Shown here: in pieces, positions 44,227 to 49,742 of the stretch
How positions within the stretch are numbered: position 1 is the first letter of the stretch
Layout of the letters: each line of letters opens with the position of its first letter
Assembly: GCA_021513715.1 (NCBI GenBank)
Contig: CP084167.1
Span: 2,592,001-2,656,000, forward strand
Direction of reading: 5' to 3'
Length of the DNA: 64,000 nucleotides
DNA from: Candidatus Heimdallarchaeum endolithica
GTDB taxonomy: Archaea > Asgardarchaeota > Heimdallarchaeia > Heimdallarchaeales > Heimdallarchaeaceae
Translations under genes and position numbers: made by a program
Notes under the pieces: model-generated
Database searches by the model: none
What the model was told of the DNA's origin: nothing
What the model saw: the letters and a program-made list of their open reading frames with translations, nothing else

Positions 44227-46044
44227 CTATGTTTTTTCAAAAAATGTACTCATTTCAGCAATCCATTCAGCAGATTGATGTTTAAAGTATGTGTTATATA
44301 GTTCAGCATAGAAACCTCCTTTACTAAGCAGAGTTTTGTGGGTTCCTTCTTCTATTATTTTTCCATGGTCTAATACAATAATCCTATCTGCATTTTGAAT
44401 AGTAGTTAATCTGTGAGCAATAACAATAGAAGTTCTGTTCTGTAAAAGCTTATCTAAAGCTTCTTGTATTTTCCACTCAGTATAAGCGTCAACAGCAGCT
44501 GTAGCTTCATCTAAAATGACAATTTTTGGATTAGTTATTAGAGTTCTAGCAAAAGAAATCATTTGCCTTTGTCCTAATGACAAACCCTTTCCTCTTTCTC
44601 CGATTTCACTGCTTAAACCATTTGGAAGTGCATCAATAAATTCTTGTGCTGCAACGATTTCTATTACTTGTTTTACTTCTTCTAGAGTAGCATTTGGATT
44701 ACCAAAACGGATATTATCTAACACCGTACCACTGAAAAGAAAAACATCTTGGCTAACCAAGCCAATATTCTTTCGTAAATGTTTAATGTCATAATCTCTT
44801 ATGTCAACATCATCAATTTTAATTGAGCCTTTACTAATGTCGTAGAAACGCATTAACAATGATGCAATAGTGGTTTTTCCTGCACCCGTATGCCCTACAA
44901 TTGCAATAGTCTCACCAGGCTCAATTTCAAGATTTATGTCTTCAAGGACAGGAGAATTAGGCTCGTATTCGTGGAATACGTGTTCAAAAGTTACTTTTCC
45001 TATTATCTCTTTTTGGACAGGATTCTCTTTATTTACGACTTTTCTCTCATGATCTATAATGCTAAATATTCTCTCCATAGCAGCAAAACCACTTTGAATA
45101 ATTGAAATCTGAGAAGCAACTCTCATTAAAGGATAGAGAAAACGATTTAGTAGTAAAATGAATAATAAAATTGTTGAAGCTGTTCCAAGACCCTCAAATA
45201 TGAGCCAGCTACCAAAAAGTGTTATTCCAAAGACCCCTAAAATACTAATTCCGTCCATAACAGGCCAAATTCCAGTTATTGCAAAAGCTCTTCTCTTTGC
45301 ATATTGAAATGTCTTTTCATTAATAACATTGAATTCTTCCTTAGATTTCTTTTCTCTACCAAAAGCTTTTGCTATAGCAATTCCTGCAACACTTTCTTGA
45401 AAAGCCGCATTTACCTCTCCTATAGCTGCCCTCCAACTCCCACTGGTTTTTCTTATAATCTTTCTGAACAATACTCCTGTTGCTATAACTACTGGGCCCA
45501 TCGCAAGTGTGACCAAAGTGAGTCTCCAATTAACTGTAAACATAATTGCTAAAACTGCAAAAAGGATAACAAAATTAGAAATAAATTGTCCTATGAGACC
45601 AATCATTTGATTTAATTCTTGTGCATCATTGGTTATTCTACTCATAATTTTTCCTGTTGACTGTTTGTCATAAAAAACTAAATCGTGCTCTTGCAAACTA
45701 ACAAAAGTATCCACTTGGATATCTTTTATCACTTTTTGCGTAGTTTGAATTAACAATATCCCATTAAATACTTGGATAAGCCATAGAATGAAAGATAGAA
45801 TAACATAAGTGAGTGCATATGGAAAAACTACAGTCCACTGTTGCTTTGCTTCTAAAACATCAAAAGCTTTTTGCACCATGAGGGGAGGAAGAATATTTAA
45901 TCCTGCTCCTACCAAAATTAAAATAATAATGGCAACTAGTTTAACCTTATGTTTTCTTAAATAACTCCAAAACTTGCTTAGTAGTTCTTTATCCGAGTAA
46001 TCTTTGTCGTAATCTTCTTTATAGTTATACTGCATAATGATCAC
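44227..46044 (-). CDS. ABC exporter, fused TMD-NBD (consensus-site half of a heterodimer)
   Basis: Six-TM domain, 'GHTGAGKT', 'LSLGQRQ', 'LDEATA', 'IAHRL'. Confidence 0.92.
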   Translation of the reverse strand: MIIMQYNYKEDYDKDYSDKELLSKFWSYLRKHKVKLVAIIILILVGAGLNILPPLMVQKAFDVLEAKQQWTVVFPYALTYVILSFILWLIQVFNGILLIQTTQKVIKDIQVDTFVSLQEHDLVFYDKQSTGKIMSRITNDAQELNQMIGLIGQFISNFVILFAVLAIMFTVNWRLTLVTLAMGPVVIATGVLFRKIIRKTSGSWRAAIGEVNAAFQESVAGIAIAKAFGREKKSKEEFNVINEKTFQYAKRRAFAITGIWPVMDGISILGVFGITLFGSWLIFEGLGTASTILLFILLLNRFLYPLMRVASQISIIQSGFAAMERIFSIIDHERKVVNKENPVQKEIIGKVTFEHVFHEYEPNSPVLEDINLEIEPGETIAIVGHTGAGKTTIASLLMRFYDISKGSIKIDDVDIRDYDIKHLRKNIGLVSQDVFLFSGTVLDNIRFGNPNATLEEVKQVIEIVAAQEFIDALPNGLSSEIGERGKGLSLGQRQMISFARTLITNPKIVILDEATAAVDAYTEWKIQEALDKLLQNRTSIVIAHRLTTIQNADRIIVLDHGKIIEEGTHKTLLSKGGFYAELYNTYFKHQSAEWIAEMSTFFEKT

Positions 46045-47487
46045 CTATTCTTTCACTCCTGTTTTCAAAGGAGGAAGTTCAGAAAAACGTTCAAAAAGAC
46101 GCCTATAGTCAATACTTGATTGAATTAATTCAATATGTGTTCCGTGAGCAACAAGCTTTCCTTTTTTTAAAATGATTATTTGATCTGCATTTTTTATAGT
46201 AGCTAAACGATGAGTAATAATGAAAGTTGTTCTCTCCTTTAATACATTAGCAATAGCAATCTGTATCTCTCTTTCTGTTTCAGCATCAATAGCACTACTA
46301 GCATCATCAAAAATTAAGATTTTTGGATTTCCCAATAAAGCACGAGCAATAGCAATTCTTTGTTTTTGCCCTCCAGAAAGCTTAACTCCTCTTTCTCCAA
46401 CAATCGTATCATATCCTTCTTCAAATGACATAATAAAATCATGCGCTTGAGCCAACTTTGCAGCGTGTTCAATTTCTTCTTGACTAGCTTGCGGTTTTCC
46501 ATAAGCAATATTTTCTCTTATTGTCTTGCTAAAAAGAAAAATATCTTGTTCTATAGCACCTATATTTTTCCTTAGACTAGACAAACTCATCTCTCTTAGG
46601 TCAATACCATCGATGGTTATTCTGCCCTCTGTAGGGTCATAGAAACGCATTATTAGTTTAATCAATGTAGATTTTCCAGAACCAGGAGAACCGATAATAG
46701 CTATAGTAGACCCTGCAGGAACATGAAGATCGATACGATCAAGAGTTTTCTCATTAGTATTGTTTCCATTGTAAGAAAAAGAAACATTTTCAAAAACAAT
46801 TTCACCTTTTGTTTCTAACCATTCTATAGGGATAATGGCTTCTGGAACGTATTCTTGTCTAGTTTTCATATTGTAAATTCTTTTTGCTGCAGCCATACCA
46901 ATTTGAAATTGAGTACTGGCCCAACCTAATTGCCATGTGGGAGAGTTCAAAGTCATTGCTAACATTACAAAAGAAACTAGTTGCGAAAGTGATATTCTCC
47001 CTTTTGTTACTTCAAAACTACCCCATAGAAAACTAAAAGCTATAACTAAAATAGTTATTAGAATAGGATAATACTTTGTGCTTAGTATTCCTCTTTGTGT
47101 ATTAATCTCTCGAAGCTTATCTGCTTGTATGTCAAAATAATTAATCTCTTCGTCCTCTTTCACAAAACTTCTGATTATTCTAATACCTGTTACACTCTCT
47201 TGTAAGAATTCATTAAGTCTGCTGTTCTGTTCAACTTGAGCTTTAGAAATTGGTTGTAATTTCTTGTTAAAATCATAAATTGTAATAATATAAAATGGTA
47301 ATGCAAAAACAAGAATTAGAGTAAGTTTTGGGCTGATATAAATCATAAGAGAAACAGAAAATAATATCGTAAAAAAACCTTCAAGTAAAAATTTTAACCC
47401 TGGAGAAATGAAGATATTCATCTGACGGGTGTCGTAAGTGGCACGAGCCATGATATCTCCAATACGGACTCGATCATGAAACTCATG

Positions 47488-47514
47488 ATTTACTTTTTGC
47501 GAAGTTTGTCGAAC
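47488..47514 (+). repeat. Terminal inverted repeat (tnpB 3' side)
   Basis: ATTTACTTTTTGCGAAGTTTGTCGAAC. Confidence 0.9.
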
Positions 47515-47724
47515 TTAGTCTTTCAAGAAAAAAACAAAGAAAGAGAATTGTTAGTTTCTTGAGAACTTAATCCTAACATACAATGAAAGAAGAAGGATTA
47601 AGGCAGACGTCATACACGAATCGGGGGAATCATAAAGAAGAGAAGATGTTCTCTTCACTCCACGAGAGACAAAAAAGAAAGAATAACTAGCCCTAAAATA
47701 GAGAAATTATCTTTCTTTTTGTCT
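47488..47724 (-). ncRNA. Candidate omegaRNA (TnpB guide RNA scaffold)
   Basis: Non-coding stretch between tnpB stop and element end, with four stem-loops (47523-47562, 47566-47602, 47637-47656, 47667-47724). Confidence 0.6.
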
Positions 47725-49180
47725 ACTGGGACTGCAACCAATGGCTGAGTCCTCGGCAAACAGTATAATGCGTAAGACTAAACTTTTGACCAGTAAAGTA
47801 ATCAGTAATAGTTGTAACACGGGGACGAAAAAGATGACTAAGGAACTTACGGGCAATATTTCTAGCCCCTGTTAAATCAGAGTGGTAAGTATAGTTACAA
47901 AAGGGACAGTGTATTAATCCTCTGACGGGACGAGAAACTTCTTTTCCACAACGGGAACAATGAGAAGATGTTCCTCTTTCGTCTATTATAAGAATACGAT
48001 GAGGAGCAAAACCTCTTAATATCAATGCTCGACGGAGAAGAGAAAGAACTAAAGAAAAATTCCACTGGTGAAGTTTTCTGCGAAAATAACGAGTATTTTT
48101 ACCTTTCCCTTTTTCTTTTCCTTTTCTGACATTTTTGGGGTAACCTACGACGACGAAAAGGTCATACATTTGAGCATAGGTCCCTATCGTCCGCACAACG
48201 TCGTTTATAAATTGGTGAATATAGGACTGTTTAACGTTTCTATATCTCCGACGAAGATATCCAAGAAAACGATAAATTTGGTGTTTTTTACCCGACTGGT
48301 CATTTAAAGCCGCTTTCCTCTGAAGACGGGAAAACTTGAGTTTATATCTGTGATTGATTCTATTCCACTGTTTGGTATACCAGAATTTTATCTCTTTGCT
48401 TGTTAACTTCTTTTTGGGAGTTAGTAACACTCCTACAGCAGGAATGTTTATCCCTAGATCTATCCCCAGCACAGCTGGGGGAAGAGAAGAAGAATTATTA
48501 ACTGAATAAGAAAAAGAAGAAGGAGGAAGAACTTCTAATTGAAAATATACCCACCACTCACTTGTAGAACGTTTATATCTCAGTTCTAAACTTTTTATCT
48601 GTCCTTTCTTTAACTCTTTCTGGTGGAAAGTGCTCATCTCTAAAGGTAACCACAATCGTTGATGATACCTTGTTTTTCTTTTCCACGTGTCTAATGAGTC
48701 TCTTATTCCTACCCACCAACGAGAAATAGAGTTATTTTTCTCTTTTGGTAAATTAGTAAGAATAAACCTATTCTTATTGATTAGTTGTCTTCGGGGTCTC
48801 TTTTTTGGAGGACGAGTGGCTTCAGGTCTATATCCTTGCTCGTACAGTTGTACTGCTATATCTCTACACTCTTGAAACTCATCATGAGAACAATATGGAA
48901 ACATCTTTTTAAGGTCATGAGGAACAGTCTCTCTTCGCTCTTCTACTTTTTTTAGCCTTGATGTTGTCAATGTTAGTTCATCTAGTTTTCCTCTATGTAC
49001 TCTTATTTCTCCTTTCTTTGTTTTCATACACAGTCTTCTTCTGTTGTGATGTATAATTTTTACATATTTTTCTATTATCCTTGTGTCTCTCCCTGTTATT
49101 CTCCTTAATCTTTCCTTTTTTCTCCTCGTCAAAACTTCATTTTTTATTTTTACTTTCAAAGTTTTGACTATCTTCTCCAT
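47723..49180 (-). CDS. tnpB: TnpB-family RNA-guided endonuclease with rearranged RuvC site
   Basis: RuvC-I 'VLGIDLGIN'; Gly at the usual RuvC-II position ('VVVGYP'); 'IIDERGTSSHCSRC'; Zn finger CSRC/CPFC; RuvC-III 'HSDLTGARNI'. Confidence 0.92.
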   Translation of the reverse strand: MEKIVKTLKVKIKNEVLTRRKKERLRRITGRDTRIIEKYVKIIHHNRRRLCMKTKKGEIRVHRGKLDELTLTTSRLKKVEERRETVPHDLKKMFPYCSHDEFQECRDIAVQLYEQGYRPEATRPPKKRPRRQLINKNRFILTNLPKEKNNSISRWWVGIRDSLDTWKRKTRYHQRLWLPLEMSTFHQKELKKGQIKSLELRYKRSTSEWWVYFQLEVLPPSSFSYSVNNSSSLPPAVLGIDLGINIPAVGVLLTPKKKLTSKEIKFWYTKQWNRINHRYKLKFSRLQRKAALNDQSGKKHQIYRFLGYLRRRYRNVKQSYIHQFINDVVRTIGTYAQMYDLFVVVGYPKNVRKGKEKGKGKNTRYFRRKLHQWNFSLVLSLLRRALILRGFAPHRILIIDERGTSSHCSRCGKEVSRPVRGLIHCPFCNYTYHSDLTGARNIARKFLSHLFRPRVTTITDYFTGQKFSLTHYTVCRGLSHWLQSQ

Positions 49181-49293
49181 CTTTTTTCCTCTTCTTTTCC
49201 TTTTTTTCTTTTTCTTCTCTTCATTTATTTCTACTATTTTTTCTTATAAAAAGTCTCTTTTTTTTCTTTTTCATCCATACTCTCTATCCTAAT

Positions 49294-49320
49294 GTTCGCA
49301 AAATTACGCAAAAAGTAAAG
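49294..49320 (-). repeat. Terminal inverted repeat (tnpB 5' side)
   Basis: Reverse complement reads CTTTACTTTTTGCGTAATTTTGCGAAC. Confidence 0.9.
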
Positions 49321-49742
49321 CATGGCTCTTTTTTAGCATATCATCATAAAATTCTTCTGTAACATTTTTTGTCACTTTGTGTGCTATAACCTCATTTGTA
49401 TAACTCTGTGTAAAATCAGCTAAAGTGCGAATAATTCCCGCTAAAGCAATTAATAAAGCAGTTTTTATAATTTCTAGAAACGAACTATTTTCTTTTGCTA
49501 ACTCATCAAAAATATCCCCAATTAACATAGGTGTAAAAGATACAGTAGCAATAAAGAAAATAAGGAAAAAAACCATAATACTTACTAGTTTCTTTTCTCT
49601 CAATATATGCTTAAATAACCATCTTTTATAACCCATATACAAACCTGCAATTTAATCTTATTCAAATACCGTTGATTAATCTTCTTTAAAACTTTTTTTT
49701 TAATGCATCTTTTTTACAATAAATAATAGTTTGAAGAGTTTT

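Follow-up and report, generated by a model that had tools for sequence, protein, structure and literature searches.

How a transposon that encodes a TnpB nuclease and no transposase of its own is moved within a closed archaeal genome is the question raised by this locus. The stretch of DNA analyzed in the present study (the window) comprises 64,000 nucleotides of Candidatus Heimdallarchaeum endolithica, positions 2,592,001 to 2,656,000 of contig CP084167.1, and the host genome is a single closed contig of 3,326,783 bp with 30.8% G+C. Within the window, an ABC exporter gene is split by an insert whose sole open reading frame (47723-49180, minus strand) encodes a 485-aa protein of the TnpB family. 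The results revealed that the element is mobile, that it inserts at (C)CAT(G), and that it joins host DNA at AT with no other base gained or lost; as judged from its sequence, the element carries an intact-looking TnpB and a putative structured RNA at its right end.

The insert is flanked by CATG at 47484-47487 and 49321-49324, with 1833 bp between them. Its 27-bp arms (47488-47514 and 49294-49320) are identical at 22 of 27 positions, form the longest inverted repeat within 4 kb, and each consist of two tandem 10-bp units. When the insert and one CATG were removed in silico, the exporter frame was restored (K-K-S-H-E-F-H-D-R), and in H. aukensis the ortholog is uninterrupted and the empty site intact, with the two flanks overlapping there by CATG. 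In these respects, namely the split host gene, the arms with their tandem units, the flanking CATG, the single TnpB gene and the Asgard host, an earlier reading made from the sequence alone (the sequence-only reading) described the locus correctly. The same reading called the insert bounded by inverted repeats; the repeats are present, but they are subterminal, and the bases adjoining the core differ among copies. The true limits of the element are 47487-49321, between two AT cores.

Three interpretations of the CATG junction had been offered by the sequence-only reading, a 4-bp duplication, a 2-bp AT core, and TG...CA ends with no duplication, and the second was found to be correct. At the right junctions located by alignment, AT is central in 62/62, and the left and right 4-mers are identical in only 23 of the 40 full elements; the left end of a copy encoding another type of TnpB (E, see below) reads GATG. 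Empty-site comparisons in H. aukensis showed copies occupying targets that read GAT, AAT or CAT followed by T, in which the base before the left AT and the base after the right AT are those of the target and the other two are those of the element. Among 40 reconstructed targets, C was observed at -1 in 39, G at +1 in 32 and C at -2 in 17; no conservation was seen beyond these positions. The search pattern for left ends required AT, and the independent evidence for the core therefore consists solely of the right-end tally and the empty sites. The 2-bp AT is the one sequence that every junction shares, and the target reads (C)CAT(G). The junction tallies and the empty sites ruled out both the 4-bp CATG duplication and the TG...CA ends, and a 3-bp duplication was ruled out by the GAT, AAT and CAT-T empty sites. 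Of 18 remnants that retain only a right end, 7 start within the element at one of its internal ATs (clear cases counted), and no integrated circle junction joining a right end to a left end was found in the assembly.

The features of the element and of the gene that it interrupts are as follows, in window coordinates.

49322..49642, minus strand: 5' part of the host ABC exporter gene, severed by the insertion (Pfam ABC_membrane; in frame with the 3' part after removal of the insert, and whole in H. aukensis).
49322..49325, minus strand: target motif CCAT, within which 49322-49323 form the left AT core, and predicted target-adjacent motif (TAM) of TnpB (40 reconstructed targets; the TAM role is proposed from TnpB biology).
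49294..49321, minus strand: left end, with first base G, a short variable spacer and tandem 10-bp units at 49305-49314 and 49295-49304 (conserved in sequence among copies, with 2-4 core-adjoining bases varying).
49181..49293, minus strand: leader rich in purines, containing a TATA-like box near 49243-49252, and likely the promoter of tnpB (kept in all copies of subfamilies A and B).
47723..49180, minus strand: tnpB, 485 aa, with RuvC residues D241, relocated E401 and D435, and a zinc finger at C408/C411/C425/C428 (profile matches, homolog alignment and structure model).
47487..47722, minus strand: predicted omegaRNA scaffold reaching the right end (folding z, and pairing kept across copies).
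47487..47514, minus strand: right end, with tandem 10-bp units at 47504-47513 and 47494-47503, terminating in AAATC (from the sequence; the end is invariant in subfamilies A and B).
47485..47486, no strand assigned: right AT core, the probable crossover dinucleotide (AT central in 62/62 right junctions; empty-site comparisons).
47465..47484, minus strand: host DNA beyond the right end, the predicted guide of the window copy (from TnpB biology; the TAM plus this stretch make up the empty site).
46045..47486, minus strand: 3' part of the host ABC exporter gene (Pfam ABC_membrane and ABC_tran).

An intact gene for a second ABC exporter subunit (window 44227-46044) follows the broken one; thus, the insertion probably disables a heterodimeric transporter.

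The genome-wide collection of copies called for by the sequence-only reading yielded 14 full-length copies and about 10 fragments with the same ends, and for this reason the element is not a chance arrangement. The full-length copies fall into subfamily A, subfamily B (about 80% nucleotide identity) and subfamily C (53% protein identity), and one copy at 3321690-3323548 is a chimera, of subfamily B on the left and of subfamily A on the right, suggesting that copies have undergone recombination or gene conversion with one another. In H. aukensis, about 11 copies were observed, mostly at different sites, and in other genera of the Heimdallarchaeaceae, relatives that share 42-44% identity have the same plan with other unit sequences. 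The end plan, i.e. an AT core, a subterminal inverted repeat and units of about 10 bp, also bounds two unrelated TnpBs in the same genome, D (445 aa, canonical RuvC) and E (414 aa), as well as two families of gene-less miniatures of 350-380 bp. Both ends and a guide-RNA scaffold are retained in these miniatures, of which one family includes the 3' region of TnpB D, and their copies are up to 99.7% identical, indicating that the movement is recent; in other genera, a miniature and the 3' region of the local TnpB element share 89% identity. This genome encodes no member of the TnpB subfamily, found in other genera, to which the RNA scaffold of its commonest miniature (1687377-1687755, locus L228, and about 20 other places) is related; the miniature is an orphan guide cassette that is still spreading. 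The end plan was found across the Heimdallarchaeia, in three families, and related ends terminating in TCAT are present in other families, with more than 40 per genome in two Hodarchaeal assemblies. In one Hodarchaeal genome, a 2.6-kb stretch between two AT-core ends (L470:899-3531) holds a gene for an 828-aa membrane peptidase and no transposase, and one side of this pair looks like a very short palindromic remnant. No close relative was observed in the viral contigs searched, and literature searches returned no publication on this AT-core set of elements.

The TnpB of the window matches Pfam PF07282 (E=3e-9) and NCBIfam guided_TnpB (E=9e-24, below the family cut-off). Residues D241, E401 and D435 do not vary across 37 homologs, and the usual RuvC-II glutamate is replaced with glycine (VVVGYP), with E401 as the relocated glutamate. 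A rearranged site of this kind is active in Fanzors and prokaryotic TnpBs alike (PMC10312701). The structure model (predicted local distance difference test score 84) has AsCas12f and OsCas12f as best fold matches, and Cas12f ranked first both in the profile search of the PDB and in the fold search; the nuclease is, on this model, compact and similar to Cas12f, and its TAM is predicted to be CAT/CCAT. The 236 bases from the stop codon to the right end fold far more stably than shuffled sequences (z = -4.8), and the hairpins keep their pairing in 23 copies despite length changes, with compensatory changes. No Rfam match was obtained for the element RNAs. On the precedent of characterized TnpBs, this 3' region is probably the omegaRNA, for which the guide would be the host DNA beyond the right end and the TAM would lie near CCAT.

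The sequence-only reading had proposed a Fanzor-like architecture, and this proposal was not supported. The replacement of the RuvC-II glutamate by glycine with a relocated glutamate is indeed shared with Fanzor1 and Fanzor2, and Fanzor2 elements are also IS607-type (PMC3627910, PMC10312701); however, the rearrangement is not diagnostic of Fanzor because it is common to many prokaryotic TnpBs, e.g. that of Thermoplasma volcanium. The host here is archaeal, and the nearest structures and profile hits are Cas12f and TnpB: none of 45 PDB profile hits is a Fanzor, and Fanzor2 appears at rank 21 by fold, behind Cas12f and TnpB, so that Fanzor kinship was rejected. Moreover, the ends do not resemble the terminal repeats of DDE transposons, and no duplication longer than 2 bp accompanies them. 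The accompanying view that inverted terminal repeats around a TnpB-derived nuclease are typical of eukaryotic Fanzor loci is out of date (PMC10691335, PMC6188088), as inverted-repeat TnpB elements and trans-mobilized solo TnpBs in prokaryotes have already been published (PMC10691335).

The kinship of the TnpB was examined in a quick, midpoint-rooted tree built without Fanzor sequences. The window TnpB clusters with other Heimdallarchaeaceae proteins (support 99), and the sister group (support 96-98) consists of Thorarchaeal and other Asgard TnpBs with 30-34% identity to it. The next group out, which comprises the deepest-branching members of this TnpB clade, lies directly behind IS607 tnpA (support 98-99), and the ends of these IS607-linked kin have tandem units of about 10 bp and apparently finish in TGT rather than AT (six loci, by eye). 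One protein behind IS607 tnpA (L376:968-3526) is an 852-aa TnpB with an N-terminal MazE/MraZ-like repeat extension, and IS607 elements of related genomes (L163-L169, L172) possess a long ORF B that is unusual, and their left end is conserved and starts with ACCGT. In at least 13 loci, the sister-clade TnpBs are paired head-to-head with a protein of 1400-1750 aa; this partner is without a Pfam hit (loci L056, L062, L053, L058, L041, L073, L075, L381), and the searches gave no confirmation of a Cas1 fold or identity for it. The motif GTTCACTCA of the Cas1-linked Asgard groups (PMC10691335) was seen at the Thorarchaeal sister-clade loci, and at several head-to-head loci a conserved GGAGTGAAC upstream of tnpB is accompanied by a complementary GTTCACTCA downstream, a pair that could represent a split guide RNA. 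A third subgroup of the clade (L024, L030, L032, L033, L063) lacks AT-core ends and lies, in five genomes, downstream of a gene for a 900-aa HerA/CedD-like ATPase; this locus is possibly fixed and domesticated.

No enzyme that could clearly move the element was found in the two closed genomes. The sequence-only reading had proposed a non-autonomous element moved in trans, and the analysis agreed with it on this point; the autonomous copy that it suggested looking for was not found by an end scan of the host genome, which yielded no transposase-bearing element, by end patterns in 31 and 83 genomes, or among the neighbors of the three TnpB types. IS110 is absent from this genome, and the one tyrosine recombinase present was rejected as the mover, as the targets are without the 6-8-bp homology that such enzymes require.

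Herein, we tentatively favor, at somewhat less than an even chance, the explanation that the element is a non-autonomous, IS607-like transposon for which an IS607-type enzyme is supplied in trans. This explanation rests on the following observations. AT alone is shared at the junctions, and the GAT, AAT and CAT-T empty sites fit neither a 4-bp nor a 3-bp duplication, consistent with IS607 ends, at which a 2-bp core without duplication occurs together with short direct motifs and a subterminal inverted repeat that is imperfect (PMC6188088). There is no target preference past -2/+1, as is the case for an IS607 element that integrates at a strict GG with a weak TGGG preference via a circular intermediate (10.1101/2023.11.20.567912). 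The imperfect subterminal inverted repeat with short direct motifs is itself an IS607 end feature, and the deepest-branching kin of the TnpB lie directly behind IS607 tnpA. In other words, the window element resembles the IS607 family (IS607, IS1535, ISC1926, CboIStron) in having a 2-bp core at both ends and in the target with no further duplication, short tandem motifs, minimal target specificity, a tnpB with a predicted RNA at the right end, and close TnpB kin that are IS607-borne; the ends of IS1535 are longer and less symmetric. Judged by sequence, the anatomy fits IS607 on every point that can be tested in this way, except for the letters of the core.

According to this explanation, an IS607-type serine recombinase acting in trans would bind the 10-bp units near the ends and cut the AT core with a 2-base stagger, releasing a circle with a right end-AT-left end junction that would integrate at another CATG-like site. 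TnpB with its omegaRNA, guided by the host DNA after the right end and recognizing a TAM of about CCAT/CAT, would then cut the emptied donor site, and repair of this cut would restore the element. The recombinase gene, absent from the present chromosome, might have been lost recently or might reside on an unassembled virus or plasmid. The remnants that start at an internal AT also speak for this explanation, as they would be expected if one end can recombine with any AT core.

Several results weigh against an IS607-type mover. Neither IS607 TnpA nor a remnant was found in this closed genome (Pfam and a hidden Markov model from 65 sequences on six frames), the same holds for closed H. aukensis, and among the roughly 150 loci examined no tnpA lies inside an element bounded by AT-core ends; this absence from both closed genomes stands despite the near-identity of the miniatures. 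Assignment to the IS607 family therefore failed, because no cognate TnpA was found. The core here is AT, in contrast to GG in characterized IS607, the IS607 elements of relatives have different ends and cores, and a 2-bp crossover and a 2-bp duplication of AT are not separable by sequence alone.

The other possible movers need to be weighed. A smaller but appreciable chance was given to the proposal that Heimdallarchaeia harbor TnpB elements and guide-RNA-only miniatures that nowhere have a transposase of their own and are moved at the AT core by a host-encoded enzyme, either the conserved truncated serine integrases of the Heimdallarchaeaceae or an unrecognized recombinase. That the elements exploit one of two truncated serine integrases of the chromosome, in the way that some phages exploit XerCD, is by itself unlikely. 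These proteins of 240-249 aa (316.7-317.4 kb, L001:1213-1935; 405.3-406.1 kb, L002:1201-1950), with a catalytic and a recombinase domain, are the sole serine recombinases in both closed genomes; the 249-aa protein retains the catalytic motifs and matches the A118 and Bxb1 integrase domains, and the junction predicted for the circle is nearly palindromic about AT. Such integrases are present in 28 of 30 Heimdallarchaeaceae genomes and were not found in 52 other Heimdallarchaeia genomes, including the Hodarchaeal genomes with more than 40 such ends, and hence they are plausible movers here and cannot explain the Hodarchaeal elements. The targets show no half-site similarity, and the unit sequences differ among element families within one host. 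The high conservation of the integrases (71-87% identity across the Heimdallarchaeaceae) and their fixed neighbors, one lying within a fixed three-gene operon, suggest a cell function, possibly chromosome dimer resolution given the single tyrosine recombinase of this genome, and no TnpB was found near extra copies of them. An unrecognized enzyme common to the Heimdallarchaeia, moving the whole set of elements, has a low probability: the recent movement and the end plan across three families are in its favor, as is the failure of any known transposase class sought in the two closed genomes to match AT-core ends, but no candidate was found, and it would be simpler if a known enzyme had been lost or were supplied from outside the chromosome.

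It is rather improbable that a DDE transposase moves the element by cut-and-paste or copy-out, duplicating AT. Both ends have inverted repeats, the target center is palindromic, and TnpBs between inverted terminal repeats occur in prokaryotes in six DDE-linked groups (DDE-1 to DDE-6), reported together with Asgard Cas1-linked TnpBs (PMC10691335). Four DDE families are active in this genome; however, its three multi-copy families have ends unrelated to the AT-core ends and, where seen, longer duplications. No DDE gene lies within any element bearing AT-core ends, no duplication exceeds 2 bp, and the terminal bases differ between near-identical copies and between families, whereas DDE ends do not vary in their terminal bases. 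We likewise hold little expectation of an IS200/IS605 Y1 transposase acting through a single-stranded DNA route, for which the two CATs would be a target motif and a right-end motif that match by chance. The terminal TCAT of many right ends and the TTGAT sequence of some targets recall IS605 cleavage sites, and a duplication is not required, but the G preference after the core would be unexpected. G+C-rich subterminal hairpins, which the resident IS605 element has, are lacking, and the A+T-rich units are inverted between the ends and non-palindromic in some families. The only Y1 gene of this genome is split by an AT-core miniature, after its second codon, in a classical IS605 element (923.9-925.9 kb, L080), and closed H. 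aukensis is without Y1. The large Cas1-like partner of the sister clade, despite its repeated head-to-head association with TnpB, is a highly improbable integrase for these elements, as this genome contains no homolog (tblastn, hidden Markov model) and the head-to-head loci are without AT-core ends.

Beyond IS607, the element can be compared with other TnpB systems. With the TnpB-only IS1341 group it shares tnpB as the sole gene, and with omegaRNA-bearing miniatures such as PATEs it shares derivatives without a gene in which both ends and the RNA scaffold are preserved; it differs from both in lacking Y1-type hairpin ends and in that three unrelated TnpB lineages have one end plan in one genome. 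The Cas1H-Asgard TnpB groups (PMC10691335) have in common with it the related sister clade, the rearranged RuvC and a GGAG(A)TGAA motif in the RNA, but no Cas1-like partner is present in the element or the genome, and the ends are different.

Taken together, the present study defines a transposon end type, with an AT core and a CATG target, that is common to at least three unrelated TnpB lineages and to several guide-RNA-only miniatures in Asgard archaea. The results have no direct bearing on the origin of Fanzor. One TnpB clade is seen to switch partners among IS607 TnpA, a large Cas1-like protein and no partner at all, and what moves these elements in closed genomes without a matching transposase has become a testable question. 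If true, a host-encoded mover would represent a new arrangement for TnpB elements.

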